DNA of 64,000 bases from Candidatus Micrarchaeia archaeon (GTDB lineage Archaea > Micrarchaeota > Micrarchaeia > Anstonellales > Bilamarchaeaceae). Under the pieces are notes generated by a model that made no database searches, was not told the origin of the DNA, and saw only the letters and a program-made list of their open reading frames with translations. This document shows positions 24,341-60,870 of the stretch, piece by piece. The stretch covers positions 34,630-98,629 of the forward strand of contig JAXLQI010000002.1 of the NCBI GenBank assembly GCA_046331685.1. Direction: 5' to 3'. The position numbers were made by a program, and so were the translations under genes. Each line of letters begins with the position of its first letter. The first letter of the stretch is position 1.

Positions 24341-24343
24341 CAT

Positions 24344-36274: not shown

Positions 36275-36289
36275 CGGTATTTTTTTTAA

Positions 36290-40239: not shown

Positions 40240-41052
40240 TGTCTTGAGGGAAAGCTTCTCTTCATCGTTGAACTGGCGCAGGATCTCATCCTGCTGCTTG
40301 AGCAGATCGAGATACTCCTTCTGCAGTCCCGCGAACCCGGCCTCTTCCTCGTCGCTGAAGGTCCGGATCTGCCGCTCAGCGTTCCGGAGCTGGATGACCG
40401 TGTTGATCGCATGGATCTTCTTAAGGTTCTCCTCGAGCAGCTTCTTCCCCTCCTCGCTGATCCACACCTGCCGGTTCGACACTTCCAGACGGACCTCACG
40501 CGCGCCTTCCTGCTCCGCGGCCCTCAGCTCTCCGGATACGGATTCGCATGAAATCCCGCACCTGCGCAGGCACCGCGCCAGGCTGTTCGCTGCATTCTCG
40601 TCGAGAGGGGAAAGCCCTATCGGGCCGGCCAACGCCCCCGAAGATACGGCGGCGGAAAGCTCCTGCCTCTCTTTGGCCCCTAATCCTGATGCCAGAATGG
40701 ATATCTTCGCTATCTCCAGCCTGTTCTCGAAATTCCTTTTGACGATGAATCCGCGCTCCCGCAGTATCTCATACACCCTGCCGTCGCGCACCTTCATCGC
40801 CTCCCTGACGGAGTCAGGCGGGAACTCATCAAGGGTTTTGCCGAGCTCATCCAGCTTCTTGAGGCAGGGTATCATGATCTCTATCCCGGCAGCACTGATC
40901 TTCGATGATATCTCCGATGCGTTCTGGGAGACCGCCTTCGATTCGGCATCTTCGGTGCCGTACACCCTCCTCTTGAATTCGAATTCAGCCCTTTTTTTGT
41001 TTAGCTCTAAAAGTCTTGAGATCTCTCTGGCCGTTATTTCCATGTTTCCCAC
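40231..41052 (-). CDS. Hypothetical coiled-coil-rich protein
   Basis: 273 aa; charged, helical; no family recognised; overlaps elp3 end by 9 nt, on the other strand. Confidence 0.4.
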   Translation of the reverse strand: MGNMEITAREISRLLELNKKRAEFEFKRRVYGTEDAESKAVSQNASEISSKISAAGIEIMIPCLKKLDELGKTLDEFPPDSVREAMKVRDGRVYEILRERGFIVKRNFENRLEIAKISILASGLGAKERQELSAAVSSGALAGPIGLSPLDENAANSLARCLRRCGISCESVSGELRAAEQEGAREVRLEVSNRQVWISEEGKKLLEENLKKIHAINTVIQLRNAERQIRTFSDEEEAGFAGLQKEYLDLLKQQDEILRQFNDEEKLSLKTSG

Positions 41053-43475: not shown

Positions 43476-44051
43476 TCAGGCCACTTTCTTGAATGCGAGG
43501 ATCCCCTTCTCTGTCCTGAAGAACTCATATCCCTCGGACAGGTAGAGCTTCTCCAGCGCGCTTCCGGCCTCGGTGATATAATCGGCTATGTTCCCCTTAG
43601 GGATATCCTCATAGAGATAGCCGATCGTGTATCTGAGGCCTGAATCGACGGCTTCCTTCTCGCGCTCGGAGAGGAGGATCCTGCGGATGCCCCTGCCCTC
43701 GTAGGCGAGGAGGACGGCCGGGTCTTCCAGATACAGGGCGTTTGGCTCGCCGCTCATTATCCTTTTGGTATCAAGATCGACCTTGGCAGGCCAGGCGAGG
43801 CCCACCCCGACGAGCATCCGGTTGACGGTCGCTCCGAAGCTCTTGCCGTAAGCGACTATATTGCTGACCTCGACCTCGGTCACGTCGAAAGCGCATTTGC
43901 GCATCACTTTGACGCAGTTCTCGATGTCCTCAGGGTCGTTCGCGTCCAGCCTCTTGACCTCGACCTCTTCTTCATCGAGAAGATGGACGAACTTTTTTTT
44001 CGGGGCTTCCGCCTCCTGCTTCTTCTCGGTTTGCTTGAAAGACTCGACCAT
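43476..44051 (-). CDS. GNAT-like acetyltransferase fold protein
   Basis: 191 aa; 'LAYEGRGIRRILL' motif A-like; last gene of the long minus-strand operon. Confidence 0.45.
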   Translation of the reverse strand: MVESFKQTEKKQEAEAPKKKFVHLLDEEEVEVKRLDANDPEDIENCVKVMRKCAFDVTEVEVSNIVAYGKSFGATVNRMLVGVGLAWPAKVDLDTKRIMSGEPNALYLEDPAVLLAYEGRGIRRILLSEREKEAVDSGLRYTIGYLYEDIPKGNIADYITEAGSALEKLYLSEGYEFFRTEKGILAFKKVA

Positions 44052-44057
44052 ATCCCT

Positions 44058-44399
44058 TCACATGAACCGCGTATTGCATGCCGGGCACTGTGTCAGCATG
44101 GCTTCCATCTTGTACCCGCAGATAGGACATACATAAAAGGTTTTATTAGCCCTCTCTAATTCGGCCTCGAAGTTGTACCGGCATTTGGTGCAGCTTTTCA
44201 CGTCGAGCTCGTTCAGCGTCTGGCATTTCGGGCACTTCCTCCTGAACATGCTCTTGACGCGGATCCCGCACTTGGGGCAGCGCGCCATGCTCAGGTTTAT
44301 CGTCTCCCCGCAGTTCGGGCACTTCTGGACCTGCCCTTTGCGGTCCGACGAGGCACCGGGCCCGTGCATGAAGTTCTTCAGGACGTCTCCGATCCCCAT
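44058..44399 (-). CDS. Multi-zinc-ribbon protein
   Basis: 113 aa with six CxxC pairs ('CPNCG','CPKCG','CPKCQ','CTKCR','CPICG','CPACN'). Confidence 0.6.
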   Translation of the reverse strand: MGIGDVLKNFMHGPGASSDRKGQVQKCPNCGETINLSMARCPKCGIRVKSMFRRKCPKCQTLNELDVKSCTKCRYNFEAELERANKTFYVCPICGYKMEAMLTQCPACNTRFM

Positions 44400-44400
44400 G

Positions 44401-47400
44401 TCATCCGCTCAGCGTGCAGCTCACGTCGTAATCCTTCAGGGGTATCGGGACATTGCAGAAAGTCTGGGCCTTCTCAATGGACCGGATATCGGCATTGAGG
44501 CCGCAGTCGACCTCCTGGTCGCCGATCTTCGAGAAGGCGATCGGCTTGTTGACCTGGTTCGAGGTGGATTTCTTGACATAGCTGTACCTGCGGCCGCCCT
44601 GGTCCTCGAGGCAGCATTTGCTGGTCCGTGGGATCCCACCGATTATGTCGAGGTAGACGTCGGAGCTCAGGTCGGTCATGCTGCCGTTCCTGGCCTCGAC
44701 CGTGCCGTTCGCGTAAGAGAAGGTGCAGTCATAGGTCCCGGGAAGGTCCTTGCACAGCGGGCAGCGGCTTCCGGCCGGGTCGTCCACGACCGTGTTCTCC
44801 GGGCATCTGAAGCTCCCCTTGATATCAGCCTCGGAGAACCCTGCCGGGGGGACGCATTTGATCGCGTCGTCGCATTTGAGGGCATCGTCGTTGCATAGGC
44901 CCTGAGCCTTCTCGAGGCTGCTGCAGGGCACGCACTCGGATACGTTGACAGCGTTCGTGAGCTGGTAGACCGCGATGGGCGGGGAGGACGTCATCCTCTG
45001 CATCGCCTTCTCGAGGGCGCACATCTTCGAGTTGGAGGTCCCGATGCCGCCGTTCACATCCTCGAGGCCTATCGCAGGGCCTTTGATGGTGCTCGGGGGT
45101 ATGATGAGCTCGAACTGCCTCGCCGGCGAATAGATTATCCCGGTGAGCCCGGCCTTGATCAGCTGGTCCTGGTCGAGCACGATCGCATCGAACAGGGCTG
45201 TCTGCTTGTCGCGGGTGTTCCAGATCGAGTCAGCGCTGTCCAGGTTGAGGCCCACCACCATCGTGGGCTTGCCGTATTTCTGGAGGATCGCGAGCGAATA
45301 ACCATAGATCGAGTCGGCGATGTACTGGCTGTAGTTGGCGGTGAGATTGGCGGAAGGGTCGAGCGATGTCACGTACGCGCCGAATGCAGGCAGCTCGCCC
45401 GTGTGCGAGCTGATCGCATAGTCGTATGTGACCATGTCCACGGAGAATTTCGTGTTCAGGTTGGTGGTGAACACCCCTCCTGCCGTGTCGGAGAGGCTCT
45501 GGTTGCTCGCAGCGCCGGTGACGTGGAACGCGGTCAGGCATCCGAAGCACCTGCTGTGGATCAATGCGCTCCGGTCCCCTATCTCGGTGGCCTTGTCAGA
45601 CGCATCGCTCGCGTTCGCCACGCGGTCCACTATGACCACGGCCGCGCCCGTGTTCCCGACGAGCCTCTGGAAGTCATACTCATCGAGCTTCTCGTTCCAG
45701 TTCGAGGCGTCGCTCAGGTCGAGCACAGGCATGACGCCGGCTTTCATGTAGTTCCCGAACCTCTCCTTGAGGACGCTCGCCTCAGGGACGGTCCGCGGGC
45801 CGGGAGGCTTCGCTCCGTCCTCGACGCTGAAGTCGTTCGCGTCGGTGATGAGATTATTGGCGCACCGCAGCTCGTTCGATCTTCCAACGCAGATCTTCCT
45901 CTGGAGGGGGGTCAGGTCCACGGTCCCGCCGTTGTCCACATTGCCGATCCCAAGGGGCACGTAAGTGTCGTTCGTTGCGGTTATGGTCTGGTACGCCAGC
46001 GTGGATGTCGTGCAGGGTTCGCACCAGCCGTACGTCCTGATCTTCGGCATGCCCGACGCGGCATCGAGGGCGCATTTGCCGATCTTCTGGTTGTTGTTGT
46101 CATAGAACAGCACGATATACTTGCTGTAGAGGATGTCGTAAGTAGGCTTCACCCCTTCTGCCCAGAAGTAATAGTTCTTATCCTCGTCATCGTTGTGATG
46201 GTACGGGTTGACGTAATATCCTGAGTTGAGGCCGCGGAGCGCGCAGAGCGAAGCCTCGCTCGCCGAAGTGTATGTCTCGCTGAACCTGTTGATCTTCCTC
46301 TCCCCGATAGCGATCTCGTTCGCGAGGAGGAAGTTCGATGCCCCGCCTCCCATGTACGGCTGGACCGGGTGCGGGCGCTTATCCACGTTGATGACCCAGG
46401 GAAGGCCGGTGAAGAAGAAATCATAGAAATACGACCGTGCCTGGACGGGCGCATCATCGTAAAGCTTGCCTGCATCGGCTCCGCAGTCGTCTCCTGTCGA
46501 GATCGCCTTCATGCCGCTGAACCTGCTCCTGAAGTATCCTGTGAAAACGTCCTTGAGCGGGCCCCACTGCGTCGGGTCGTTGGGCACAGCGACGATATCA
46601 TAATCCACCCCTCCCCCCACCATCTCGCAGTTCTTCACGACAAGCAGGTTTTTCACGTCGCTCTGGGTGGCTAGCGCGTACCCTATGACCTTGCGTCCAT
46701 TATATGTCGCCTGCGGCTCCACGTTGCCGAAGAACAGCGCTCCTCCGGCCGGCGGGCCGTTCGACACTTCGGCGAAATTATTGTTCCAGCTGCCATCAGT
46801 GTAGTTATACCAGTAGAGATAGGTCGAGGCGGTGTTCGTTATGTCCCCGACATCGGTGGATTTCTTCGCCTGGGTGAAATACGAGCTGCTCATCACGTTC
46901 GGGCAGTTGACCTGCCAGCCGTCGTTGCCCCCGCCGAAGTAGTAGGCGCCCGAATATATGTAATTGACGAAGCTGTCCAGGTGGTTCGAATCGAATATGC
47001 CGCACAAACCGTCCCCTCCCTCGACCCAGGACTGCCCGTCGAAGTGCGTGGTCCTCGCCGATACCTTGGCGTATTTCCGGTTCGGGGCGGTGTTGGGGCC
47101 GGTCAGGGTGACGTTCACCGTGGGCGCGCAGATGATCTTCGTCGTCCTGCTTTCGTCGGTGTAGCTTTCGCAGTCGGTGACGACCTCCTGCGACTGGCCG
47201 CTCTCGTCCTGGGGCGTCAGCATCACCACCCTGTTGTATGTGGTCGTGCCGCATATCCCTGAGAAGCACTCCGTCGAAGCGACGTCGCATTCGAATGGCG
47301 CCCGCGTCGTGTTCTTCTTGACCGGGTTCAGCCCGTAGACCGTGTCGGCATGCGCGATCGACAGCCATTTCTTGTAGAAGCTGTCGTCGATCTTCTTGTT

Positions 47401-48336
47401 GACGCTGGATGGCATGAAGAACTTGTCATTCATGAAGTATCCGAACCCGAAACTGGACAGCGTCCCGTCCAGGCGCGCCCAGTGGGCGAACTTGTAATTG
47501 GCGCTGTCCTTGTTCACTATGGAATAATTGTATCCGATGCTCCAACCATCATGCGTGAATGTCCCGGACCTGCTGCCTAATCCGCTTTCGTCGAAACTGA
47601 GGGGCGAGGGCGGGGTGGAGCTGCCCTGGTCGAAGCAGTTGTTTGTGATCCCTGTTATCGGGTCGTACTGCGCCAGCGTCGAAGGGTTGAGGTAATTCAT
47701 GTACCGGTCCACGCGCAGCTCTCCCAGCTTGGGCGGGTTGACCGTGCAGAACCTGTCTGAGATGGGGAAGAGATACCTGTATTGCTCATATTCGTCGAAG
47801 GACCCGCCGACGCCCAGCCTGAACACGTTGATGGCCGATTTCGAGTTCTTCATTATCTTCTTCAGGCTCCCGTCCATGGGGAGGAAGCGGCACTGCGCTT
47901 TGTAGAACTGGATCGCCGTGGCATCCTGCGTGTCAGGAGGGATGTCTGCGCTGACCTTGTTATCGTCGCTCACGCTGAGCCCGAATCCTACGGCCGGCTT
48001 GAACTTGAAATCCCCGCACACCATGGTGAGGCAGTTCGGCGCCCTGCAGCTCAGGATGTCGTCCTCGGTGCATATGGGCACGAGATAAGGGCCGATGGTC
48101 GGGGAAAGCGTGACATTGCAGAAATTCCCGGTGGTATTGCATTTCTGGCCGTCGGATTCGAGGTTGGTCTTCGCTATCATGTCGGTGATCGTGTCGGAGC
48201 TGTCGTTATACAGGATGCACCCCGTGTGGTCCGTTGCATTGGCCTTGAGGCAGCAGCCGATCTTGGATGCGGGCTGGAGACAGCCGAAGGCCATCAGGGC
48301 CGCGAACAATACCAGTGCGAGGGTTCGTTTCTCCAT
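44401..48336 (-). CDS. Giant (1311 aa) secreted cysteine-rich protein with dense N-glycosylation sequons
   Basis: Signal peptide 'MEKRTLALVLFAALMAFGCL'; no internal TM; many Cys; NxS/T sequons throughout; start abuts the upstream paralog's stop (48337). Confidence 0.7.
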   Translation of the reverse strand: MEKRTLALVLFAALMAFGCLQPASKIGCCLKANATDHTGCILYNDSSDTITDMIAKTNLESDGQKCNTTGNFCNVTLSPTIGPYLVPICTEDDILSCRAPNCLTMVCGDFKFKPAVGFGLSVSDDNKVSADIPPDTQDATAIQFYKAQCRFLPMDGSLKKIMKNSKSAINVFRLGVGGSFDEYEQYRYLFPISDRFCTVNPPKLGELRVDRYMNYLNPSTLAQYDPITGITNNCFDQGSSTPPSPLSFDESGLGSRSGTFTHDGWSIGYNYSIVNKDSANYKFAHWARLDGTLSSFGFGYFMNDKFFMPSSVNKKIDDSFYKKWLSIAHADTVYGLNPVKKNTTRAPFECDVASTECFSGICGTTTYNRVVMLTPQDESGQSQEVVTDCESYTDESRTTKIICAPTVNVTLTGPNTAPNRKYAKVSARTTHFDGQSWVEGGDGLCGIFDSNHLDSFVNYIYSGAYYFGGGNDGWQVNCPNVMSSSYFTQAKKSTDVGDITNTASTYLYWYNYTDGSWNNNFAEVSNGPPAGGALFFGNVEPQATYNGRKVIGYALATQSDVKNLLVVKNCEMVGGGVDYDIVAVPNDPTQWGPLKDVFTGYFRSRFSGMKAISTGDDCGADAGKLYDDAPVQARSYFYDFFFTGLPWVINVDKRPHPVQPYMGGGASNFLLANEIAIGERKINRFSETYTSASEASLCALRGLNSGYYVNPYHHNDDEDKNYYFWAEGVKPTYDILYSKYIVLFYDNNNQKIGKCALDAASGMPKIRTYGWCEPCTTSTLAYQTITATNDTYVPLGIGNVDNGGTVDLTPLQRKICVGRSNELRCANNLITDANDFSVEDGAKPPGPRTVPEASVLKERFGNYMKAGVMPVLDLSDASNWNEKLDEYDFQRLVGNTGAAVVIVDRVANASDASDKATEIGDRSALIHSRCFGCLTAFHVTGAASNQSLSDTAGGVFTTNLNTKFSVDMVTYDYAISSHTGELPAFGAYVTSLDPSANLTANYSQYIADSIYGYSLAILQKYGKPTMVVGLNLDSADSIWNTRDKQTALFDAIVLDQDQLIKAGLTGIIYSPARQFELIIPPSTIKGPAIGLEDVNGGIGTSNSKMCALEKAMQRMTSSPPIAVYQLTNAVNVSECVPCSSLEKAQGLCNDDALKCDDAIKCVPPAGFSEADIKGSFRCPENTVVDDPAGSRCPLCKDLPGTYDCTFSYANGTVEARNGSMTDLSSDVYLDIIGGIPRTSKCCLEDQGGRRYSYVKKSTSNQVNKPIAFSKIGDQEVDCGLNADIRSIEKAQTFCNVPIPLKDYDVSCTLSG

Positions 48337-49380
48337 TCAGACCACTTTGCTGACCATTCTCATAATCTCGTATGAATCCGCCCCGAGGACCGTGATTATA
48401 TAACGGACGAAGACCATCGTGAGGAAGAACGCGACGAGCGGGTGGAGCATGAGGGTTATGTACGACTTGGAAAGCTCGTCGCGGATGTTCTGGTTGCCGA
48501 GGAGGCCCGTCGTCCCGAGGCCCCCTGCCTGGAGCGTCTGAAGGACCGAGACCGTGTTCGACATCGTCGCGTAGCAGTAGGGCTGCTGGATCGGCGGCTG
48601 GGCCTGCTCGGTTACAGGGGGGGCAGGCACGAAGCCAGGGTCGAGGAGGACGAAGAAAATAGGGAATATGAAATACATCCCGATCCCGAACGCGATGAAC
48701 AGGGCTCCCACGCTCCTGCTGAAGTATATGCTCCGGAGGAATATCCCGAACGGGATGAAAAGGTTAAGCATGTTCGCTTTCAGGTAGGCGATGATCGAAG
48801 ACTGGGCGTTGAGGCCGATGAGCAGGGTGGTCGCGAGATTGTTCGTGATCCTGGCGGTCTCCGTCGCCCGGTAGAGCGAGCCGATCCAGTCCCCTTTGAA
48901 AACCGTGAGCCCGAGGAGGCTTCCCTGCGTGTTCAGGATATTGAATTCCGATGCCGTCCCGATCCCTGTAGTGACATCCCCCTGTATCTTGGCGACTGCG
49001 ACCGCCTTCTCCTGGAGCCTGCAGCGTATAGCGTCGAAAGCCTCATCCATGGTGGACTGGTTGGTGGTCCCGATATGGACGGATTTTCCGAAACATGATA
49101 TATCCCCGGTGATGAAGCTGTGCGCTATGTCCATAGCGCTGTTGACCATGATGAGCAGGGATCCGACCATCACCGCGGTGGAGAGGGCCTGGAGTATCTC
49201 TGACATGGCGTAGTTCTCGAACTCCTTGATGGAAAGAACCCTTGCAGCCAGGAGGAAAACGATGTGGAGGAGGAGGGATACCATCAATGCCAGCGCAGAG
49301 AGAGGAGCCCAGTTCGCGACCCACCCTGCGCCTCTGAACTGGAGGTCCGATAATAGGGAAAGTATCGGCAGGGCATCCAT
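48337..49380 (-). CDS. Polytopic membrane protein, paralog 1 of 6 (unassigned family)
   Basis: 347 aa. Shares with paralogs 2-6: an N-terminal TM, a '(F/W)xxE' amphipathic segment ('KEFENYAMSEILQAL'), a core 'FLRSIYFSRSVGALFIAFGIGMYFIFP', and a C-terminal 'LGADSYEIMRMVSKVV'. Confidence 0.7.
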   Translation of the reverse strand: MDALPILSLLSDLQFRGAGWVANWAPLSALALMVSLLLHIVFLLAARVLSIKEFENYAMSEILQALSTAVMVGSLLIMVNSAMDIAHSFITGDISCFGKSVHIGTTNQSTMDEAFDAIRCRLQEKAVAVAKIQGDVTTGIGTASEFNILNTQGSLLGLTVFKGDWIGSLYRATETARITNNLATTLLIGLNAQSSIIAYLKANMLNLFIPFGIFLRSIYFSRSVGALFIAFGIGMYFIFPIFFVLLDPGFVPAPPVTEQAQPPIQQPYCYATMSNTVSVLQTLQAGGLGTTGLLGNQNIRDELSKSYITLMLHPLVAFFLTMVFVRYIITVLGADSYEIMRMVSKVV

Positions 49381-49382
49381 AT

Positions 49383-50414
49383 TTACACCATCTGGACTAT
49401 CCTACTTAAATCTATCTCCTCTCCGTAGAGACGGGCCACGTACGCTATGGTCCCGATCGTCCCGAGCAGCGCCGCGGTGGGCATGAGGACGGCTGCCACG
49501 AACGCGTAAGCACCGAACTGCATGGCGCCGATCGGGTTCTGCCCGCTCGGGAAATAGGAATCCACGACCGCGCCTGCCCCCATCACAGCTGCCTCCACGC
49601 TCTGGCCGGCCCCATTCTTCTCGTCGAAGACACCTTCGTCGTAGAACGCGCTGAAGTCCTGCGGCTGGTAGTTCGGCTTGTCCACAAGGACAGGTTCCAT
49701 CAGGTAGAAGATCGAGAGCAGCAATGGATAGACGATCAGGAAAGAGAGCGCCACGGCTATCATGAGCCCGCCGAACCCTCTCAGGTACGGCATCGACCGC
49801 ATGAACACCCCGAGAGGAAGGAACAGGAGGACGAACCCCTTATAGACGAACTGCAGTATGAACAGGAAATTCAGCGCCGTGAGCGTGGACATTATCGAGG
49901 AATTGAAGAAGAAATTCAGGGCCGCCTGCTCGGCGCCATACCCCCCGAGCGGCTGGAGGCTCGTCCCGGAGTACCCGAACAGGCAACCGATCCCTCCGAA
50001 TTCGCACTCGAAGACGCTGAGGGCGGCGAGGATATTGTAAGCCTCGAGGTGGTATCGGATCACGGCTGTGGCGCGCAGGGAGTAATACCCGGCATCGACA
50101 AGGTAGTGCTGGGCTGCCGTGTATATGTCGATAGAGTCGGCCGTGAGGCCGAAGAGCGGGGCTACGGTGTCCATCTTTATCGAGCAGAACCCGTTCATGA
50201 CCCCGATCAGCAGGACCACCGTGAATAGGGAGAGCGTGACCTGGACGGCCTCGGTCTTGGCCCAGAGGCTGAGCTTGGGGTTCGATAGCACCTGGCTCAG
50301 CATGTAGCTGACCGCTATTATTGACATCGTGGTCGCTACAGACAGGGCGGAGAGCGGGATGATCACCCCGTTCATCAGGTCGTTGAATCCGGAAATTCCG
50401 CATGCGTCGACCAT
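49383..50414 (-). CDS. Polytopic membrane protein, paralog 2 of 6
   Basis: 343 aa; 'NPKLSLWAKTEAVQV', 'FMRSMPYLRGFGGLMIAVALSFLIVYP', C-terminal 'LYGEEIDLSRIVQMV'. Confidence 0.7.
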   Translation of the reverse strand: MVDACGISGFNDLMNGVIIPLSALSVATTMSIIAVSYMLSQVLSNPKLSLWAKTEAVQVTLSLFTVVLLIGVMNGFCSIKMDTVAPLFGLTADSIDIYTAAQHYLVDAGYYSLRATAVIRYHLEAYNILAALSVFECEFGGIGCLFGYSGTSLQPLGGYGAEQAALNFFFNSSIMSTLTALNFLFILQFVYKGFVLLFLPLGVFMRSMPYLRGFGGLMIAVALSFLIVYPLLLSIFYLMEPVLVDKPNYQPQDFSAFYDEGVFDEKNGAGQSVEAAVMGAGAVVDSYFPSGQNPIGAMQFGAYAFVAAVLMPTAALLGTIGTIAYVARLYGEEIDLSRIVQMV

Positions 50415-51410
50415 TCAGACAAACCTCGCGATGCTGCTGACATCCACTTCAGCCCCTGCCATGGACGTGAGAGCGCGGACGCCGGCCCCCATCAGGAGCA
50501 GGGCAAGGACCGGGCCGAAAGTGCCCCGCACGAGGACGCTGAAGACGACCCTGCGGAGGTCGGCCCTCAAACTGTCGAAGATGTTGATGGCTTTCCCGGC
50601 TTCTCCCCCTCCGCCGCTGAAAAGGACCTGCGACGGGTCGCAGGAATCGATCGAGGATGTGAGCCCGCCGGAATATCCGCTCGATGCTGATGCGTCGGCG
50701 AGGAAGGTATCGACCAGCATCTGGTTGAATATGATCCCTGCTGGTATCATTATATGCATGGATACGCCGAGAGCTATGAAGAACCCGCCGGCGCCCCTCG
50801 TGAGCTTGAACGTCCTCAGGATGATCCCGACCGGCAGGAGCAGCTGGAGCGCATAATTCTTGGACAAATCTATGAGCCGCTTCATGCTGCTAAGCTCGCC
50901 TATCGAGAACGCCACGATCCCGCCGGCCATCGACAGCGGCGTGCTGAGCATCGCATACCCGCCGCAGGCGCTGACTGTGTATCCGATCCCAACTATATTG
51001 CAGGATTCGGCCTTCGAGCCTTCGATCGAGACCTTGGTGTCGAACTCGGCAACCTTGTTGTACACCTGCTTCATCCCGTCAGTGGGGTTATCGAGGTTCT
51101 GGGCGATCAAGGTGTTCGCGGCATCCTGCATATTCGCCGCCCCCTGGACGGCCCCGAGCGTGCTCGAGAATCCATCGAGGATGTTGTTGCTCCCGACGAG
51201 GACCACCATGAGCAGCATCGTCGCGATAAGCTGGTAGAACTCCTCCTTGGCCATGATCTGGAGCTCATTCACGCCGAATCCGAAACCGATCGCATAGACG
51301 AATCCAAGGATCGTGGCGGACACCGCTATGGCGAGGGCGGCGGTGCCCTCCCAGCCTCCGGCGGCGAAAGCAAGCGGGACCAGGGCCATGAGCAGGATCA
51401 TCTTCCTCAT
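50415..51410 (-). CDS. Polytopic membrane protein, paralog 3 of 6
   Basis: 331 aa; 'NELQIMAKEEFYQLI', 'ILRTFKLTRGAGGFFIALGVSMHIMIP', C-terminal 'MAGAEVDVSSIARFV'. Confidence 0.7.
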   Translation of the reverse strand: MRKMILLMALVPLAFAAGGWEGTAALAIAVSATILGFVYAIGFGFGVNELQIMAKEEFYQLIATMLLMVVLVGSNNILDGFSSTLGAVQGAANMQDAANTLIAQNLDNPTDGMKQVYNKVAEFDTKVSIEGSKAESCNIVGIGYTVSACGGYAMLSTPLSMAGGIVAFSIGELSSMKRLIDLSKNYALQLLLPVGIILRTFKLTRGAGGFFIALGVSMHIMIPAGIIFNQMLVDTFLADASASSGYSGGLTSSIDSCDPSQVLFSGGGGEAGKAINIFDSLRADLRRVVFSVLVRGTFGPVLALLLMGAGVRALTSMAGAEVDVSSIARFV

Positions 51411-53509
51411 CAGAACACCTTGGACAGTCCCGGGATCTCTATGTCCCCTCCCAGTATCGCCGAAAGGCCCCTTATGAACACCAGCGTCGCCACGATATTG
51501 AACAATGGCAGGACATACGCCGGCAGCATCATCTTCGAGACGTTCTGGATCTCAGAGGTGCCTGCGAGGCCCTCGGCTCCTATGGACGAGAATTTGCCCG
51601 CGCTTTTGGTCGGCATCGCATCCCCGGCCCTGCACAGCTCCACGCAGTTGGGCTGGATCGGCGGCTCATACACCTGCGATTCCTCAGTGAAGAGGCACTG
51701 CTCGCAGGCATTGCGCGGGACCGGTACCCTGTCCTCGGGCTTGCAGGCGCTGTTGATATCGCACGCGCCTGTAATGTAGCTGCTCGGCATCGTCTCGCCG
51801 TATGTGATTATCCTTTTCTCGGCATCGCACGACCCGCACGCCGTCGGCGAGACCTCGGCGATGTAAGTGGAATTCACCTTGCAGCCTACCGGGCAGCTCT
51901 TGCATGAATTTATCAGCTGGTTGTTGCTGGAGTTGATGCAGTTGCTCGGCAGCTTGGTTATGTCGTTCGTGGTGACCCTGCAGACCTCGGGGCAGGCGTC
52001 GCAGAGGAAATTGCACCGTCCTGTCTCCGGGACGATGTATGCGCATGAATCCAGCGCATTCAGCGAAGGCGTGCATTCCTGGGCCAGCTGGCATCTGATG
52101 TACTGCTCCAGCGAGGCATCCTTGATCGGGTTCGGGGACCAGTTGACATCCTGCGCCAAGACACCAGTATAGTTGATCCTCGTGTAGACCCTGCACTCCG
52201 GCCTCGATGCCAGGCAGCTCCCCGTATTGCAGTTACCTTTGAGCGGGGGGACGACCTTGCATTCCTTGGGGCACATCGAGAGGACAGGAGCCGTCTCGTT
52301 GTCCGGAGGAGGTGGAGGCGAAGCGAGCCTCCTCACCCAGCATTTGTCCGGGAGCGCGGCGCAATTCTGCGGGACGAGTCCCGTCTGGTTGTAGCATGTA
52401 GTGAGCGTATTGGGGAAGGGCAATTCGCGGCAGACAAGGGGGCAGGCATCGGGGCTGACGGTCATGCACGACACGACGTTCTTCCCGCTGTAGTTCCCGC
52501 TCGTGGGGCTGCCTGAAGCCGCGCTGCCGTCCAGGATCTTGGATGCCAGGTCAGCCTGCCCGGGGAACACGTCGAATACCTCTTTGGGCGAGCCCAGCTT
52601 CTTGCCGTCAGCCGATCCGTCATCTATGTAAGCGAGCGCATGCGGCACCTTGCATTCGTCAGGGCACTGGTTCGCCCCGGCGTTCTCATTGGCCTTGTCG
52701 CCGGTGAGGGTGGTGTCCAGGGTGAGCCAGTCGAACACGAACATGCCGGGGAAGAAGAACATTATGCCGCACCCTACCGCGATGAGCAGCCCTCCGAGCT
52801 TGCGGGTGAAGAAGAACGTCCTCGCGATAACCCCCATGGCGAGTATCCAGGGGCCGATCCCGAACGAGATGTGCTGGATGAAGAACTTCTGGGCTTCGAG
52901 CGAGGCGAGGAGGTTGCTGTAATATTCGAAGACCATAGTGTACCTGTCCTGGTCGAGGATGAAATGGCCTAGGAGGCTGAACGAAGCGCCTGCCTGGAGG
53001 CATAGGATAGATGTGCAATAGAGCCCGAACCTGCGGCCGGCCCACCCGGAAGCAGTGACGGCGTCGATGGAGACCTGCCTGGCGTCGTCCTTCGCCGAAT
53101 TGATGTATGAATCCAGATATGCCACAGAGACATTCCCTATGCAGCTCTGGCCGCCGACGCATGAGAGATTGAGCTGGCTCTCCTGGACGATAGCCTGGGA
53201 CATGGCATCGAGGAAAGCGATCGTAACGAGAAGGCCAATGATGATCGTCACGTTCGCGAAGACCTGGACGAGCTCGTTGCTGGCCCATGCCTTTATCTCA
53301 GGCATCTCCATGCCGATACCGACGGCGTAGGCCATCCCGATCAGGATTATCGAGATCATGATCGAGATCATGGAGAGCACCCTCCAGTCCTTGATGAATT
53401 CCGGGAGCCCGGCGCCCGAGGTCTGGGTGGTGAAGGTGTTCTCTGACTGCGTCGGCGCGAAGGAGACCGCGACCAGAGCCAGGAAGAGCGCAAGGTAAAG
53501 GAGCCTCAT
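51410..53509 (-). CDS. Polytopic membrane protein, paralog 4 of 6, with a ~380-aa cysteine-rich extracytoplasmic insertion
   Basis: 699 aa; 'PEIKAWASNELVQVF', 'IARTFFFTRKLGGLLIAVGCGIMFFFP', C-terminal 'LGGDIEIPGLSKVF'. Insertion has repeated CPxxC(K/R)V modules ('CPDECKVPH','CPKECKVVP','CPEVCRVTT','CPVGCKV'). Confidence 0.7.
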   Translation of the reverse strand: MRLLYLALFLALVAVSFAPTQSENTFTTQTSGAGLPEFIKDWRVLSMISIMISIILIGMAYAVGIGMEMPEIKAWASNELVQVFANVTIIIGLLVTIAFLDAMSQAIVQESQLNLSCVGGQSCIGNVSVAYLDSYINSAKDDARQVSIDAVTASGWAGRRFGLYCTSILCLQAGASFSLLGHFILDQDRYTMVFEYYSNLLASLEAQKFFIQHISFGIGPWILAMGVIARTFFFTRKLGGLLIAVGCGIMFFFPGMFVFDWLTLDTTLTGDKANENAGANQCPDECKVPHALAYIDDGSADGKKLGSPKEVFDVFPGQADLASKILDGSAASGSPTSGNYSGKNVVSCMTVSPDACPLVCRELPFPNTLTTCYNQTGLVPQNCAALPDKCWVRRLASPPPPPDNETAPVLSMCPKECKVVPPLKGNCNTGSCLASRPECRVYTRINYTGVLAQDVNWSPNPIKDASLEQYIRCQLAQECTPSLNALDSCAYIVPETGRCNFLCDACPEVCRVTTNDITKLPSNCINSSNNQLINSCKSCPVGCKVNSTYIAEVSPTACGSCDAEKRIITYGETMPSSYITGACDINSACKPEDRVPVPRNACEQCLFTEESQVYEPPIQPNCVELCRAGDAMPTKSAGKFSSIGAEGLAGTSEIQNVSKMMLPAYVLPLFNIVATLVFIRGLSAILGGDIEIPGLSKVF

Positions 53510-54507
53510 CCGATCACCCTCAGAGCCTTATGTATCGAACCGAAGAACGTTATCAGGAGCGCGAGCGTGAGGTTCGGCAGGAAGAACGCCTGCGGGATCA
53601 GCCTGGCGACGTTCCAGAGGCTGTCGGGGTTGCTGCATGTCGCGGCCCCGCTCGAAGCCGGGTTCTGGATGCTCGGGCATCCGTTATTGTCGATGGCGTT
53701 GTCGCAGGCGGCCTTAGAAAACGAATTGCAGTCGCCTGCCACCACGTCGTACATCGCACCGTTGAATGCATAGAGCAGCGGAAGGAGCACGTATAGTCCA
53801 ATCACAAGAGCAATAAATATGTTCCCCATGTGCCTTGTCGGGGGGAAGAAGCGGAGCAGGACGGCGATGGGGAGCACCCAGCGGACGACGTTCTCGTTCA
53901 CGAACTGGAGGAAGAACTTCTGCATGCTCAGGCTCATGAGGGCCGGCACGAGGAACGAGCTGAATATCATATTATACTGGCTGGATATCACCTTGCGGAA
54001 CGCTCCGGTCGTGGCCGTGAACGCGTTGAAGAGAGGGATCTGGAGACTGACGGCGAAAGTGGAATCCATCATCTGGTCGATATACTTCTGCACATACCTC
54101 TCCGACATCGACCGGGCATCCTCCTGCGCGTTCTTGATATAGCATTCCGCGATGCCGTTGACATTCAGGCCGGGGCTGTAGCAGGTCGTCGTGCCGAGCC
54201 TGGAGAAAGTCTGGTCGAAGAAGAAGCCGGTGAGCTGGCAGGAGAAGACGAGTATCCCGCTGAATCCCACAAGGAGCATGATCGAGAACATGAGGTGGTA
54301 GAACTCGTCTTTGGCGAACACTATGAAGCTGGGGTTGTGGGTCGCGTTCCCGGCAGCGTAAGCCACAGCGAGGACGAGTATCAGGAATGCTATCACGATG
54401 CCTATGAGGCTTCCCTGCTCGCTCACTATGACCGATGTGGCGTTGAGCAGGCATGATGCGGCGCTCGAAAGGCCGAGGACAAGCAGGAGCACCAGAGCGG
54501 ATCTCAT
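53506..54507 (-). CDS. Polytopic membrane protein, paralog 5 of 6
   Basis: Trimmed to ATG 54507 ('MRSALVLLLVLGL...'); the 176-aa upstream extension on the track is R/P/H-rich and overlaps paralog 6. 'SFIVFAKDEFYHLMF', 'LLRFFPPTRHMGNIFIALVIGLYVLLP'. Confidence 0.65.
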   Translation of the reverse strand: MRSALVLLLVLGLSSAASCLLNATSVIVSEQGSLIGIVIAFLILVLAVAYAAGNATHNPSFIVFAKDEFYHLMFSIMLLVGFSGILVFSCQLTGFFFDQTFSRLGTTTCYSPGLNVNGIAECYIKNAQEDARSMSERYVQKYIDQMMDSTFAVSLQIPLFNAFTATTGAFRKVISSQYNMIFSSFLVPALMSLSMQKFFLQFVNENVVRWVLPIAVLLRFFPPTRHMGNIFIALVIGLYVLLPLLYAFNGAMYDVVAGDCNSFSKAACDNAIDNNGCPSIQNPASSGAATCSNPDSLWNVARLIPQAFFLPNLTLALLITFFGSIHKALRVIG

Positions 54508-55679
54508 ATCAACCTCTGTATCCCGGCCATATACCATTCGCCTCCGAGGGCTGCAGAAAGGCTCCTGATGCTCGACATCGTGATTATCGCTATCAGCACT
54601 ATGTCCATGTAGATGACCATGACGTAATTGCTTACATCGCGCATGAACGGCTGGAGGTGGTCGAACACAGTCCCGCCGTACTTGCCCGGGTTGATGAACG
54701 CTTCCCATGCGATGAGCGTCACTGCGTTCACTATCTGGAAGATCAGGCTGATGATCGGGTAGACCACATGCCAGAGCAGGTCGAAGCAGACAGGGAAGGC
54801 CCCGGGGATCCATGCGATCGGTAGGCAGAGTATGAGGGCGAAAAGAGGGTCGGTGAGCGAGAAGAGGATCCTGATGGGCGCCGCTTCGCATGCCCAGCCG
54901 ATGGCGTATATCGGGAACGGGTTGGAATCGAGCGAATCCGGGTCCGACAGAGCCGGCGCGGTGAGCCCAATCTGCCCGTTCACCATATCCGCGATTATGA
55001 CTGAAAGCGGGAGGAACAGCACGACCCCCACGCATATGGCTATCAGGGTGTTGCCCACCCTCCTCGTGAAGGGGATGAGCCTCGCGCAGAAAGCCATGGG
55101 CAAGAGTATCTGCGGTATGACGACGCCGAAGAAGCTGATGAGGAGGCGTATCGCCTCAGCGAGGAAGATGGCGTTGGAAAGCCCCTGCGTGGCGAGGCTC
55201 AGCGGGACCAGGTAGATGGATGCGCCGCTCAGGGGGGCTGTCTGGTAGCTGAGGGACACCCACCAGATCGGGATGTTGGTGCCTGAGGAGTATGACGCGG
55301 CGACCCTGATGTAGGACGCGGCGGTAATCACATCGTGATATGCGCCGGTCAGGCCGTCGCCCCACGAATCCACCACGGACTGGGCTTTCGTGATATAGTC
55401 ATTATGGCCTGTGAGGACCACTGCGAGGCCGTTGCTCCCGACTAGTATCCCGATGACTATGGCTATTATGATAAGGCCGGCGAGGAACTCGCGTATCTCG
55501 GTCTTGGCCCATGCCTCGAGCTGCGGGTTCGAGATCGAATGGGCGAGCATGTTCATCGCAGCGAGGAAAATAACGACTATGATCGCTATCGCCGGAACGG
55601 CGAACTGGAGGTTCACAGCGGCCGAGAAAACAGCTGGCAGCATTAATGCAAATAAGAATGCGAGTCGCCACAGCTGCAT
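54504..55679 (-). CDS. Polytopic membrane protein, paralog 6 of 6 (first gene of the operon)
   Basis: 391 aa; 'NPQLEAWAKTEIREFL', 'CARLIPFTRRVGNTLIAICVGVVLFLP', C-terminal 'LGGEWYMAGIQRLI'; 4-nt overlap with paralog 5. Confidence 0.7.
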   Translation of the reverse strand: MQLWRLAFLFALMLPAVFSAAVNLQFAVPAIAIIVVIFLAAMNMLAHSISNPQLEAWAKTEIREFLAGLIIIAIVIGILVGSNGLAVVLTGHNDYITKAQSVVDSWGDGLTGAYHDVITAASYIRVAASYSSGTNIPIWWVSLSYQTAPLSGASIYLVPLSLATQGLSNAIFLAEAIRLLISFFGVVIPQILLPMAFCARLIPFTRRVGNTLIAICVGVVLFLPLSVIIADMVNGQIGLTAPALSDPDSLDSNPFPIYAIGWACEAAPIRILFSLTDPLFALILCLPIAWIPGAFPVCFDLLWHVVYPIISLIFQIVNAVTLIAWEAFINPGKYGGTVFDHLQPFMRDVSNYVMVIYMDIVLIAIITMSSIRSLSAALGGEWYMAGIQRLI

Positions 55680-55773
55680 GGCTAGATTTCTTGCTCATAG
55701 ATTTAAATGTTTGCTGGAGCCTCCGAATGGCGCGGACAATTATCTTTATAAAGTTGCCAAATGTTATTATGCC

Positions 55774-58446
55774 ATGAGGCTGTTGCTCCTTGCCCTGGTC
55801 CTTCTGACTCTCTTCCCCGCGATCCATGCTGACAGTTCGACCTGCGCGACCTGCTCCGAGCTGATCAATGCATCCACGACCGGCATCTTCGTGGAGGTCC
55901 GCGATGCCGACCCCACGAACCAGTACATCAAGATCACAGGATACTACAACAACGTCACAGCTTCCCCTTCCAGGCAGCCCCTGAAGGACTCTATCATAGT
56001 CATCCAGCTCACGAACTCCACCACCCTCAACGTCCTGCAGAAGACATACACGGACGGCAACGGCTCGGCCAAATTCAAGTACAACAACTGGAACCACACC
56101 TGCCTCAACTTCAAGGTGATGTACTGCCCCTACTGCAATCCCCCGAGCGCGAATTGCACCGGATTCAAGCAGTGCCTGGATTTCGCCCAGATAAGCACCA
56201 ATGCGACGACGGCAGACCAGATAACCGATGCTGCGGATGCCGTCCAGCCCGGGACGCTGAACCCGGACAGATACCTGCCGCAGATAGGGACCGGCTCCTG
56301 GTGCCCGCCTCCGCCTCCACTCAGCGCGACGCCGGCGATCTGCCTCCCGCTCATACTCATATTCTCGCTCCTATCCGGAGCTCTCTACTTGACCGGCAGG
56401 AACCCCTTCGCGGCATTCAATATCGGCGGCCAGAGGGTGGGCCAGCACATAAAATACCAGGCAAGAGGGAGAGGGTTCTCCTTCAGCATAACCCAGGCTA
56501 TCATCGCCGGTTTCAGCGTCGGCCAGGCCGCCGCGACGATCAAGAAGGAAGGCATGAAAGGCTTCGTCAAGAAGGAAGTCGATTCGGTGAAAGCCAGAGG
56601 CTTCTATAACGTCTCAGGAACTATACGAGGCATCAAAGGAGGCCTCAAGGGCCTCTCCGACGCCCGGGCCCATGCCCGGGCTGGCAGGGGCACGGCTTCC
56701 GGAGCGAGAACCAGCGGGGGGCCGACACAGGTTTCGACTGCCCAGGGTGTGCAATCCGCCTCAGCCGGCGGAGGCCAGGTCCGGGGCGCGGACCTGATGG
56801 GTTCGGGAAGGGGCGGATGGGCAATACTAGACAATCCCCTCACGCGCATACTCACATTCGTGATAATGAGCTCCACAATCGGCCGCGCCTTCGATGCCAT
56901 GTATTCTGCCGCGACATTCAACGCAGATGCCGGACGCGGAAGGAGCGTCTTCGAAGCGATATTCGCTGACTCTCCGACAAGGCAGGCTTCAGAAGGCGTA
57001 GCGACAATCCGTGCGATGCGCGGCGCGGACGGCGGCTGGTTGGTCCGTTTCGGCCCTGGCAATGCCGAGACTGCCCAGGTCCTAGGCGAACGGGTGAATT
57101 CCGATGGATCCAGGACATACATCCTCGCAGCCCCTCCGGGGACCGGCCCTGTGAAGGATAACCAGATCCAGGTGACTATAGCCCAGAACGGCACCATCTC
57201 TTCGGTCAGTTTCACCCTGACTTTGCCAAGTCCGACAGCCCAATTCCCCAACGGAGAAGCCAGAGTCGTGATCTCTCCTGGCGCAAGGCCCGGCGATCCG
57301 ATGAATATCCAGGTCGCCGTGCCCAACCCGGATTCCCGGCCAGGTCAGCCACCAACGATCTTGGTTCCATATGAAAACCAGTTCATGCAGACCTTCGGCA
57401 CCGGAGCGACAGCCCACCAGGAACCTATGACCGGGGCCGACATGCTGAGCAAGATCCCGACTTTCCTGTCTCCGGGCAGCGACGGCCGAGACTTCCAGGC
57501 AGGCTATAATGCCACGATGCTGGTGGTATCGGATGCACAGAGGCAGATACAGGAAGCGATGGCTTTCGGCGGGCAATCTATCAGGGATCGCGTGATCTCT
57601 GACATGGCGAGCAGGCCGGAGATGAGGCCTGTGGTCCGAGAAGCACGCTATGATGTGGCCGTGGACGCATTATCGACCGTGCTCGGCATCGATCCGGCGT
57701 CGCTGCGTGCAGGCGGCACAGACCACCCGGAGCTCACGAGGGGCCTTTCGCCCGGCAGCAGCGAGGCCGGCGAAGTCGGAAGATACGAAGTAGCGGTGAC
57801 GAAATTCTCGAGCGCTGATTCGGCGGGCACTCTGTCATTCTTTGATGACCGGAGCGGCACCACGAGGACCATGACCTATTCGCAGATAGGGACGGCTGGA
57901 GGAGTGACTTATATGGCCGAAAGAGGGAATCCACCACTCTCAGATGCCGCACGTCCATTCGCGACAGAGGTTCTCCCCTCCGTCATCGGTCATATGGGCG
58001 GGGCCGAGCTCGCCGGCATGACGCCGGAAAGGCTTCAGGCAGCGATCGCAAGCGATCTGCCGCGTCTCAACGCAGAACGGGCGACACATGGGCTACCCCC
58101 GATAGCGATCGCAGGATCAGGCACTCCGCCCACCGGTGCTATAGTTATATCCGCGGGAACGATGACCGAAATGACACGCGTCTTCGCTCCCCAGATCTCG
58201 CAGGCCACTACTGAATTCCGCTCCAATATGGCCAGCAGCGGACTGCCTTCCGGGTTCATCGACCGCGTGATGACCTCGGACACTTCCACCCTGGGCACAC
58301 TGAGCGCAGCAGGGCGGATGATGTCCGATGACCACACGGCCGATCTCCTCTCATCCAGACCTACCCTGATTTCGGATTACCGGATCCCAGAGTCAGTATC
58401 CCAGAACCTGCGAGAGTTCGCTCTCATGCAAAGGGCTTCCGGATGA
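55774..58446 (+). CDS. Large (890 aa) signal-peptide protein: Cys-rich ectodomain, PPPPP linker, one TM, long basic Gly/Ala/Ser/Thr-rich domain
   Basis: Trimmed to ATG 55774 ('MRLLLLALVLLTLFPAIHADSSTCATC...'). Ectodomain has Cys clusters ('CLNFKVMYCPYCNPPSANCTGFKQC') and NxT sequons; TM 'ICLPLILIFSLLSGALYLTG'. Divergent from the six-paralog operon. Confidence 0.6.
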   Translation: MRLLLLALVLLTLFPAIHADSSTCATCSELINASTTGIFVEVRDADPTNQYIKITGYYNNVTASPSRQPLKDSIIVIQLTNSTTLNVLQKTYTDGNGSAKFKYNNWNHTCLNFKVMYCPYCNPPSANCTGFKQCLDFAQISTNATTADQITDAADAVQPGTLNPDRYLPQIGTGSWCPPPPPLSATPAICLPLILIFSLLSGALYLTGRNPFAAFNIGGQRVGQHIKYQARGRGFSFSITQAIIAGFSVGQAAATIKKEGMKGFVKKEVDSVKARGFYNVSGTIRGIKGGLKGLSDARAHARAGRGTASGARTSGGPTQVSTAQGVQSASAGGGQVRGADLMGSGRGGWAILDNPLTRILTFVIMSSTIGRAFDAMYSAATFNADAGRGRSVFEAIFADSPTRQASEGVATIRAMRGADGGWLVRFGPGNAETAQVLGERVNSDGSRTYILAAPPGTGPVKDNQIQVTIAQNGTISSVSFTLTLPSPTAQFPNGEARVVISPGARPGDPMNIQVAVPNPDSRPGQPPTILVPYENQFMQTFGTGATAHQEPMTGADMLSKIPTFLSPGSDGRDFQAGYNATMLVVSDAQRQIQEAMAFGGQSIRDRVISDMASRPEMRPVVREARYDVAVDALSTVLGIDPASLRAGGTDHPELTRGLSPGSSEAGEVGRYEVAVTKFSSADSAGTLSFFDDRSGTTRTMTYSQIGTAGGVTYMAERGNPPLSDAARPFATEVLPSVIGHMGGAELAGMTPERLQAAIASDLPRLNAERATHGLPPIAIAGSGTPPTGAIVISAGTMTEMTRVFAPQISQATTEFRSNMASSGLPSGFIDRVMTSDTSTLGTLSAAGRMMSDDHTADLLSSRPTLISDYRIPESVSQNLREFALMQRASG

Positions 58447-60712: not shown

Positions 60713-60870
60713 GCTGACGTCGCATAACCTGGTAGTGCGCCGGTCTTGAATCCCGCCTTTTAGTAAAAGGCGGGCCCAAAACTGGGTTGTTTGCGAACCC
60801 CATCGGGGTTTGCCAACTAACAAAAAAACCGGTCCCTTCGGGATCGCAGGTTCAAATCCTGCCGTCAGCG
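60713..60870 (+). tRNA. tRNA-Ser(UGA), class II, with a 76-nt intron in the anticodon loop
   Basis: Acceptor GCTGACG/CGTCAGC; discriminator G. D-arm GCAT-AACCTGGTA-GTGC. Anticodon stem CCGGT/ACCGG; loop CTTGAAA, anticodon TGA (60747-60749). 13-nt variable hairpin (TCCC-TTC-GGGA); T-arm GCAGG-TTCAAAT-CCTGC. Intron 60751-60826. Confidence 0.65.

Follow-up and report, generated by a model that had tools for sequence, protein, structure and literature searches.

A conserved six-paralog membrane protein array with disulfide-rich surface partners: a candidate cell-envelope module of Micrarchaeota

A 64,000-nucleotide (nt) stretch of a Candidatus Micrarchaeia archaeon genome (contig JAXLQI010000002.1, positions 34,630 to 98,629; hereafter, the window) was analyzed for an operon of membrane protein genes and its divergently transcribed neighbor. 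The first six genes of the operon (P6 to P1) encode paralogs of a membrane protein family that is securely undescribed in all of the libraries and literature that were searched. They are followed by a gene for a large secreted, disulfide-rich protein (Giant) with a predicted glycoside hydrolase (GH)-like barrel and by two genes for cytoplasmic proteins (Zn and GN-like), and a gene for a bitopic membrane protein (Div) lies upstream on the opposite strand. In our tentative interpretation, to which we assign a probability of roughly 0.45, the locus is a vertically inherited, Micrarchaeota-wide cell-envelope module in which a hetero-oligomeric membrane platform displays disulfide-rich, glycan-binding surface proteins. 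The genes and the region between the two transcription units are as follows (aa, amino acids; TM, transmembrane).

P6, 54504-55679, minus strand, 391 aa: first paralog, with a predicted five-TM core and two to three extra TM helices in the second outer loop
P5, 53506-54507, minus strand, 333 aa: paralog whose start codon overlaps the P6 stop codon (ATGA)
P4, 51410-53509, minus strand, 699 aa: paralog with a putative 401-aa extracellular insertion between TM4 and TM5
P3, 50415-51410, minus strand, 331 aa: minimal paralog, with a signal peptide and five predicted TM helices
P2, 49383-50414, minus strand, 343 aa: paralog with no obvious cleavable signal peptide
P1, 48337-49380, minus strand, 347 aa: paralog with no obvious cleavable signal peptide
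Giant, 44401-48336, minus strand, 1,311 aa: secreted, disulfide-rich protein with a predicted GH-A-like barrel
Zn, 44058-44399, minus strand, 113 aa: cytoplasmic protein with several zinc ribbons and 12 Cys
GN-like, 43476-44051, minus strand, 191 aa: cytoplasmic protein, final gene of the unit
Div, 55774-58446, plus strand, 890 aa: divergent bitopic membrane protein
Putative divergent promoter region, 55680-55773: 94 bp between P6 and Div with two TATA-like boxes

The six membrane proteins form a paralogous family

When the six proteins were compared with each other by BLASTP and phmmer, most pairs shared 20 to 28% identity over 200 to 280 collinear residues, and short local matches of 51 to 57 residues reached up to 35% identity. 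The P6-P1 pair gave no significant BLASTP match. Comparison of the orthogroup profiles (36 to 42 orthologs each) with hhalign returned probabilities of 94 to 99.5% in all 15 pairs. An earlier reading of this DNA, made from the sequence alone, had called the six genes clearly paralogous; the pairwise matches and the 15 profile pairs bear this out, and the six genes are true paralogs. Among 60 diverse family members, E57, R199, R205, G208, and P223 (P3 numbering) are invariant, and Q60, L192, P193, G195, and G319 are nearly so. The paralogs also share a C-terminal LGG(E/D) tail. Three conserved motifs had been proposed from the sequence alone; they are present and can be reduced to the five invariant residues and the C-terminal tail.

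Orthogroup-averaged hydropathy and charge point to five TM helices per paralog, with a signal peptide in P3 to P6. The layout starts with TM1, a short loop carrying the invariant Glu, and TM2; the acidic loop that comes next is about 100 aa long and, in P1 to P5, holds a conserved Cys pair. The loop between TM3 and TM4, 12 to 26 aa long in most paralogs, contains on orthogroup average 3.0 K+R and 0 D+E and bears R199 and R205 (RxxxxxRxxG). TM4 and TM5 are connected by an acidic, Cys-bearing loop of 48 to 401 aa, and TM5 is followed by a tail of about 20 aa that includes the LGG(E/D) motif. According to the positive-inside rule, the basic loop, the Glu loop, and the tail would be cytoplasmic and the two long loops would lie outside, giving a predicted topology of N-out, five TM helices, and C-in. 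E57, R199, R205, G208, and P223 would then all map to the cytoplasmic face or to TM4. The placement of the long loops agrees with the 32 conserved Cys in the 401-aa loop of P4 and with the 11 glycosylation sequons counted over the whole of P4. In addition, one family member of 1,312 aa (P0164) carries CARDB domains (E = 7e-18), which are of an extracellular adhesion type, ahead of the pentaspan core, and this N-terminal location fits an N-out topology.

The Cys-rich ectodomain insertion of P4 had been put at about 380 aa; we see it as the 401-aa loop, whose 32 conserved Cys include six CPxxC(K/R)-like modules. Conserved modules within P4 residues 282 to 626 read CPDEC, CPLVC, CPKEC, CPEVC, CPVGC, and CVELC, and four conserved CxxC pairs are also found in Giant. 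The CPxxC(K/R)-type modules of P4 and the CxxC pairs of Giant could be disulfide or metal-binding modules. In general, the ectodomains are the evolutionarily plastic part of the family, since one member is fused to CARDB domains and many others have grown to 1,100 to 1,680 aa by insertions that carry no annotation.

An AlphaFold2 model of P6 was built from 44 orthologs (predicted local distance difference test [pLDDT] score of 81.4; predicted template-modeling score [pTM] of 0.65). The model is almost wholly helical, with long helical hairpins and one beta-hairpin, and its first outer loop runs helix, beta-hairpin, helix. The hairpin of the first outer loop is 0 to 12% charged in all six orthogroups.

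The array is conserved in order and number across Micrarchaeota

One genome per GTDB species was scanned with patterns from the P6 ortholog alignment, and 43 loci were obtained, with P6 orthologs at 30 to 60% identity. Most of these genomes (39 of 43) are labeled Micrarchaeota, Micrarchaeia, or Bilamarchaeum/Bilamarchaeaceae; three are labeled "archaeon" or "uncultured archaeon," and one is labeled "Candidatus ainarchaeum sp." In all typical loci long enough to judge, the gene order is Div (-) and then P6, P5, P4, P3, P2, P1, and Giant (+), and a Div ortholog lies divergently upstream of P6 in all typical loci. Across the 43 species genomes and four further contigs, each open reading frame (ORF) of a locus matches its own ortholog best, and no complete array has lost, gained, or reordered a copy, even at 30% identity. 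The earlier suggestion that the operon might be lineage specific agrees with the same order in more than 40 related loci and with named relatives that all belong to Micrarchaeota. Because the gene order is conserved, the array is not a random duplication artifact.

The two most divergent loci are L047 and L046, both at 30% identity to P6. L047 has all six orthogroups in the same order, and L046 has the first four in order and then reaches the contig end. In both, the E values to the own orthogroup were 1e-104 to 1e-237, versus 1e-4 to 1e-28 for the other groups; thus, the duplications predate the split of the lineages, each copy has been retained since, and each paralog is individually indispensable. 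In L047 (2140-9642), the array is flanked directly by housekeeping genes, a class I LysRS-like gene on one side and PAC2-like and RibD-like genes on the other, with neither Giant nor Div adjoining. In L046 (5225-11414), Zn and GN-like lie directly upstream of P6, in the usual place of Div. These two exceptions indicate that the six-gene array is the invariant core and that the other genes are frequent partners. Zn and GN-like follow Giant in both loci that reach that far, and a third locus (L001) ends at the start of Zn.

An exhaustive hidden Markov model (HMM) search found 2,924 clusters of the family (50% identity level) at an E value of ≤1e-3; the shortest members, at about 250 aa, are probably fragments, and the longest reaches 1,683 aa. 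Every relative that carried an organism name came from Micrarchaeota, and a scan of viral contigs found no relatives. The operon thus appears to be lineage specific, and the locus is judged to be vertically inherited. A mobile or defense island was also considered and was rejected because of the uniform guanine-plus-cytosine (GC) content over the locus and its flanks (0.57 to 0.60), the conserved housekeeping flanks, and the lack of PADLOC or PHROG matches. Two metagenome-assembled genomes (MAGs) hold two complete clusters on separate contigs (L023 and L030 in C2.bin.27; L009 and L045 in PMV_4.13), and in both MAGs one copy lacks the usual ScpB-AAA18-PadR flank. Each case represents a duplication of the whole cluster or else a mixed bin.

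The genes are tightly packed and probably divergently transcribed

From 55679 to 43476 (about 12 kb), the nine minus-strand genes are linked by overlaps of 4 or 1 nt or by gaps of at most 6 nt. The P6/P5 and P5/P4 junctions are 4-nt ATGA overlaps, the P4/P3 junction is a 1-nt overlap, and the P3/P2 and P1/Giant pairs abut directly. The remaining gaps are 2 nt (P2/P1), 1 nt (Giant/Zn), and 6 nt (Zn/GN-like). The sequence-only reading had reported six consecutive overlapping or abutting minus-strand genes in an operon that continues into the genes for Giant, Zn, and GN-like; these coordinates and junctions are confirmed. Close packing of the genes recurs in the loci of other genomes. The encoded proteins are the same as those annotated as hypothetical proteins U0R44_03160 to U0R44_03190 in a Candidatus Micrarchaeia MAG.

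Two gene starts differ from those in the ORF list. The true start of P5 is the MRSALV start at the P6 stop codon, and the listed 509-aa P5 ORF is an upstream overextension; the true start of Div is ATG 55774, not GTG 55411. Between 44000 and 58500, both strands carry many long spurious ORFs (100 to 270 aa), either antisense to the real genes or in another reading frame, a common feature of high-GC DNA. One of these ORFs gives rise to the 509-aa version of P5, and another yields a Div of 1,011 aa that runs into P6.

Two TATA-like boxes were read from the intergenic sequence. The box ATTTAAAT at 55701-55708 lies 22 to 29 nt upstream of the P6 ATG, and the box TTTATAAA at 55745-55752 lies 22 to 29 nt upstream of the Div ATG. 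Because this spacing is usual for archaeal TATA boxes, both are likely to act as promoters, and the spacing suggests leaderless or short-leader transcripts in both directions.

The paralogs match no described family

P1 to P6, Giant, and Div had no match in Pfam, NCBIfam, PADLOC, or PHROGs. No recurrent Pfam family emerged from 60 diverse family members at an E value of ≤1, two family profiles searched against PDB sequences gave no matches at an E value of ≤10, and single-sequence PDB searches with Giant and Div returned nothing meaningful. When the P6 model was compared with PDB folds by Foldseek, there was no match at an E value of ≤1e-3, and the template-modeling score (TM-score) was at most 0.23. 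A description of this locus was not found in the literature on Micrarchaeota. The earlier statement that the motif set maps to no known family therefore stands for profile libraries, PDB sequences, and PDB folds.

The weak Foldseek matches of the P6 model were headed by TTYH1-3 (E values of 0.02 to 0.1) and also included the ClyA-type toxins AhlB, MakA, and ClyA; we treat all of these as leads only. TTYH and prominin proteins resemble the predicted paralog topology in being N-out and C-in, with five TM helices and two disulfide-bearing extracellular loops whose long helices continue from the TM helices, and the Foldseek alignment to TTYH1-3 spans the full P6 model (TM-score of 0.13 to 0.20). 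However, they have no sequence similarity to the paralogs, are eukaryotic and homo-oligomeric, and do not occur in six-paralog sets. The ClyA-family alpha-pore-forming toxins (ClyA, AhlB, MakA, and XaxA/PaxB) were counted among the nearest known systems.

In organization only, the array is analogous to the VirB6/TrbL arrays of the Rickettsiales rvh system, which likewise line up several polytopic paralogs with large, variable extensions outside the cytoplasm and occur in a symbiont with a reduced genome. In contrast to these arrays, the operon lies in a housekeeping chromosomal context and has a fixed subunit count and order, with one orthogroup per position; it contains no VirB4/VirD4 ATPase, VirB2 pilin, or other type IV secretion system (T4SS) gene, and the paralogs give no sequence-profile match to VirB6/TrbL. 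A CedA/TedC system would be marked by a CedB/TedB ATPase of the HerA-FtsK type in the operon, and no ATPase gene is present in the operon at any locus. For ABC-2 or FtsX-type permeases, there was no Pfam or NCBIfam signature in the paralogs and no ABC ATPase gene in the cluster. The FliP/FliQ/FliR export gate offers a conceptual parallel, in that related helical-hairpin subunits encoded side by side form a pseudosymmetric complex of fixed stoichiometry. No homology to it was detected, however, subunit size and topology differ, and the operon has no ATPase or export apparatus.

Giant is a disulfide-rich surface protein with a GH-A-like barrel

Giant was compared across 96 orthologs, in which 132 positions are at least 90% conserved. 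Its 45 Cys are nearly all conserved, and its 16 sequons barely exceed the 12.5 expected from composition. The sequence-only reading was thus right about a secreted protein dense in Cys, its description of NxS/T sequons as dense is not supported, and the GH-like barrel had gone unnoticed there. The signal peptide ends in a conserved lipobox-like (A/F)GC motif, with G18 and C19 conserved, and Giant is probably lipid anchored.

A model of residues 113 to 1311 (pLDDT of 82.7; pTM of 0.86) shows beta-rich domains, a clan GH-A-like (beta/alpha)8 barrel at about residues 852 to 1128, and a Cys-rich C-terminal domain. As modeled, the barrel has a TIM-barrel, GH-A-like fold. Sequence identity to clan GH-A enzymes and their noncatalytic relatives (GH158, GH53, GH5, GH26, GH72 Gas/Gel, and GH128) is 6 to 14%. 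Also different from clan GH-A is the setting of the barrel, a 1,311-aa protein with otherwise unmatched domains. Canonical GH-A enzymes have a catalytic Asn-Glu at the end of strand 4 and a nucleophile Glu at the end of strand 7. In an approximate mapping based on secondary structure and conservation, the Giant barrel showed no conserved Glu where the inferred strands 4 and 7 end; the conserved residues at strand ends are D873, Y973, G1066, Y1069, and P1071. None of the 96 orthologs has a precomputed Pfam GH domain, and the only domain recorded among them is PF16656, in a single ortholog (P0388). Because the modeled barrel lacks the canonical catalytic glutamates, glycan binding or a noncanonical activity is more likely than that of a classical retaining hydrolase.

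Giant was also considered as the S-layer protein of Micrarchaeota. This candidate was rejected, as Giant has no PF05123 domain and contains 45 Cys rather than being Cys poor. A Pfam scan of Giant and Div found no S-layer domain (S_layer_N, PF05123).

Div, Zn, and GN-like are frequent partners of the array

Div is composed of a signal peptide, a conserved ectodomain rich in Cys (about residues 1 to 190), a PPPP linker, and one TM helix, followed by a highly conserved juxtamembrane motif (YLTGRNPF..F..GG..H..Y.A.GRG). Its tail, which is presumably cytoplasmic, is poorly conserved, Cys free, basic, and rich in G/S/T/A, and it varies several-fold in length between lineages; whole orthologs range from 682 to 1,553 aa. 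The earlier description of a divergent 890-aa signal-peptide/TM protein with a basic Gly/Ser/Thr-rich domain is accurate, with the start at ATG 55774.

The multi-zinc-ribbon nature of Zn, also proposed earlier, was confirmed by a match to Pfam DZR (PF12773; E = 9.9e-10; 38.9 bits versus a cutoff of 27.3), and Zn, which is presumably cotranscribed with the array, stays beside it in the rearranged locus L046. GN-like is conserved at 61 to 85% identity between loci, versus 30 to 60% for the membrane paralogs, and contains a YEGRGIRR motif. Conservation of this degree suggests that GN-like is a housekeeping enzyme of the cytoplasm or else an essential partner. GN-like had been named a GNAT, and weak GNAT matches do exist: Acetyltransf_1 at an E value of 0.043 (14.5 bits, below the cutoff of 20.7) and, for one ortholog, Acetyltransf_9 at an E value of 0.004. 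All of them fall below the Pfam cutoffs (E values of 0.004 to 0.04), and no relevant match to GN-like was found in the PDB.

A proposed membrane platform and its alternatives

In the model that we favor, one hetero-oligomeric platform, possibly in the form of a pseudo-hexameric ring, would be built from a single copy of each of the six products. One-copy-each assembly is suggested by the translational coupling, the fixed order, the absence of loss, and the invariants shared on one face. The Glu and Arg motifs of the cytoplasmic face would form a common subunit-subunit or partner interface, and the divergent ectodomains would give each subunit its identity. On the outside, the platform would present disulfide-stabilized domains, chiefly the P4 insertion of about 400 aa, and in most lineages it would also hold the cotranscribed, lipid-anchored Giant. 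Div would be a bitopic partner joining the platform to the cytoplasm. Such a platform would most likely serve to engage or organize glycan-rich surface material, i.e., in attachment or envelope architecture, rather than in ATP-driven secretion. Candidates for this material are glycoconjugates of the host surface or of a biofilm and the glycosylated S-layer of the cell itself. A micrarchaeon has been reported to depend on a biofilm rich in glycoconjugates for its interaction with the host, and galactose and mannose are displayed by that host (PMC8975820). The signal peptides, Cys-rich ectodomains, and GH-like surface protein are in line with an envelope or surface role, as the sequence-only reading had proposed; its other proposal, a secretion machine, is not supported, since the cluster has no energy source.

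Several points weigh against the platform model. The fixed order and the coupling would also fit six separately acting proteins. Synteny among these genomes is broad, extending to ScpB, PadR, the Lon-like protease, and ELP3, and may by itself explain some of the linkage of Zn, GN-like, Div, and Giant to the array. The L047 array has no Giant or Div alongside; neither is thus an obligatory neighbor, and the core function of the array would need neither in cis. Lipid anchoring of Giant is based solely on the lipobox-like motif. The mapping of its catalytic positions, derived from secondary structure and conservation, is approximate, and Giant could instead be an active noncanonical hydrolase.

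Four other explanations, together with a bolder form of the favored one, were weighed. The six subunits could be part of an S-layer or pseudoperiplasm scaffold, in which the hetero-oligomer would be an SlaB-like membrane anchor or strut spacing a hexagonal glycosylated S-layer and Giant an accessory lattice or glycan-binding part. Micrarchaeota have an S-layer with a pseudoperiplasm of 20 to 25 nm (10.1101/2021.04.28.441871), the S-layer of ARM-1 is sixfold symmetric (PMC11329633), and the array comprises six subunits with helical-hairpin ectodomains. The phylum-wide, housekeeping-like conservation and the housekeeping genomic context also favor it, and the solitary L047 array is what would be expected of a basic envelope component. 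We nevertheless regard this explanation as doubtful, since the ecto helices of about 35 residues (about 5 nm) are far below 20 to 25 nm, a hetero-hexamer would have no true sixfold symmetry, and the known Micrarchaeota S-layer protein is a different one (PF05123, almost Cys free) that is not encoded here. In Micrarchaeum, this PF05123 protein is almost free of sulfur amino acids (10.1101/2021.04.28.441871). It is unlikely, too, that the six pentaspans form a channel for passive or partner-energized import of host glycans, lipids, or metabolites, captured or processed outside by Giant. Polytopic subunits with conserved charged residues at the membrane boundary, a GH-like partner in the same operon, and the reliance of Micrarchaeota on hosts for metabolites and carbohydrates (PMC8975820; 10.1101/2021.04.28.441871) would suit such a conduit. 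Against it, the operon has no nucleotide-binding, substrate-binding, or energy-coupling gene at any locus, the invariants lie at the predicted cytoplasmic face and not along the TM helices, the structural matches are insignificant (TM-score of at most 0.23), and no similarity to a transporter family was found in Pfam or NCBIfam.

That each paralog acts alone as a surface-protein anchor, for example as an adhesin or receptor, in an array kept by operon inertia seems quite improbable to us. The great variation in ectodomain size and Cys content between paralogs is in keeping with it, as is the enlargement of some members to 1,100 to 1,680 aa or their fusion to CARDB domains in some lineages. However, complete arrays have never lost, gained, or reordered a copy down to 30% identity, the start/stop overlaps imply balanced cotranslation, and the invariant motifs of the cytoplasmic face are common to all six. 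[quoted passage not shown] Least supported, and highly improbable in our judgment, is a T4SS/Ced/Ted-like translocon, with the paralogs as VirB6/TrbL/CedA-like channel subunits that move DNA or proteins between cells. A tandem polytopic array with large outer loops in an obligate symbiont lineage does recall such systems, the tandem VirB6 arrays of Rickettsiales resemble it, and a gene for a HerA/FtsK-superfamily ATPase lies at 36290-37816, about 6 kb past the 3' end of the operon. Yet the earlier analogy with VirB6/TrbL arrays is not supported: neither the six paralogs nor the 60 family members matched TrbL/VirB6 (PF04610) at an E value of ≤1, no PDB sequence matched at an E value of ≤10 in a database that includes solved T4SS components, and in more than 40 loci the operon and its immediate surroundings lacked genes for VirB4/VirD4/CedB-type ATPases, pilins, and relaxases. 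The locus, moreover, is chromosomal, uniform in GC content, and vertically inherited. The nearby ATPase has a HAS barrel, a mark of HerA and not of VirB4; as a motor for the operon it was rejected because of this barrel, its distance of about 6 kb, and the unrelated genes in between. The absence of an adjacent ATPase or pilin had been noted earlier and is upheld, the nearest ATPase being this HerA-type one.

Other features of the window

The HerA-type ATPase gene (36290-37816, plus strand; DUF87 and HAS barrel) adjoins an M23 peptidase gene (35165-36427, minus strand), and this group (35165-37816) was judged to be unrelated to the operon. A 268-aa ORF at 37855-38661 belongs to no family and could encode a NurA-like partner of the ATPase. 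The product of the gene just past the operon (40985-42679, minus strand; 564 aa) has a Lon_C (S16) protease domain between a signal peptide and a C-terminal TM helix and looks like a secreted or surface Lon-like protease. Its neighborhood is also conserved in two further loci (L048 and L049), and it may or may not belong to the module.

A low-GC island (0.45 to 0.48, versus about 0.58 elsewhere) lies in the region 20000-25922 and looks like an integrated mobile element. It contains an MscS-like channel fragment (22839-23450), and its end is marked by a tyrosine integrase gene (24344-25561; Phage_integrase, E = 2e-20), which adjoins an intron-containing tRNA gene (25730-25922, minus strand). 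Rfam models identified two tRNAs in the window, of 193 nt (25730-25922) and 158 nt (60713-60870), both presumably intron containing, and ARAGORN in bacterial mode found none. A tRNA-splicing endonuclease gene is present at 33787-34284, and together with the intron-containing tRNAs it fits an archaeon. A signal recognition particle (SRP) RNA was detected at 6006-6261 (minus strand) with the Bacteria_large_SRP model (66.5 bits) and not with an archaeal one, because only the best clan member is reported.

Implications for Micrarchaeota

Micrarchaeota are DPANN archaea with reduced genomes and are thought to depend on other archaea. To our knowledge, the molecules that build their envelope and mediate host contact are almost entirely unknown. 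Here, about 15 kb is devoted to a conserved set of six paralogs plus partners that belongs to no described family and combines a membrane core with glycan-enzyme-like, disulfide-rich surface proteins. The locus adds a large annotatable protein family (about 2,900 clusters at 50% identity). If the six products do form a hetero-oligomer, they would provide a clear prokaryotic case of an ancient homomer that diversified into a fixed six-subunit complex. If, in addition, the host-bridging form of the model were true, the locus would be the source of the apparatus by which Micrarchaeota contact their hosts and acquire nutrients. The array is a concrete, testable candidate for a lineage-defining surface machine, suited to study by cryo-electron tomography, proteomics, and structure prediction.

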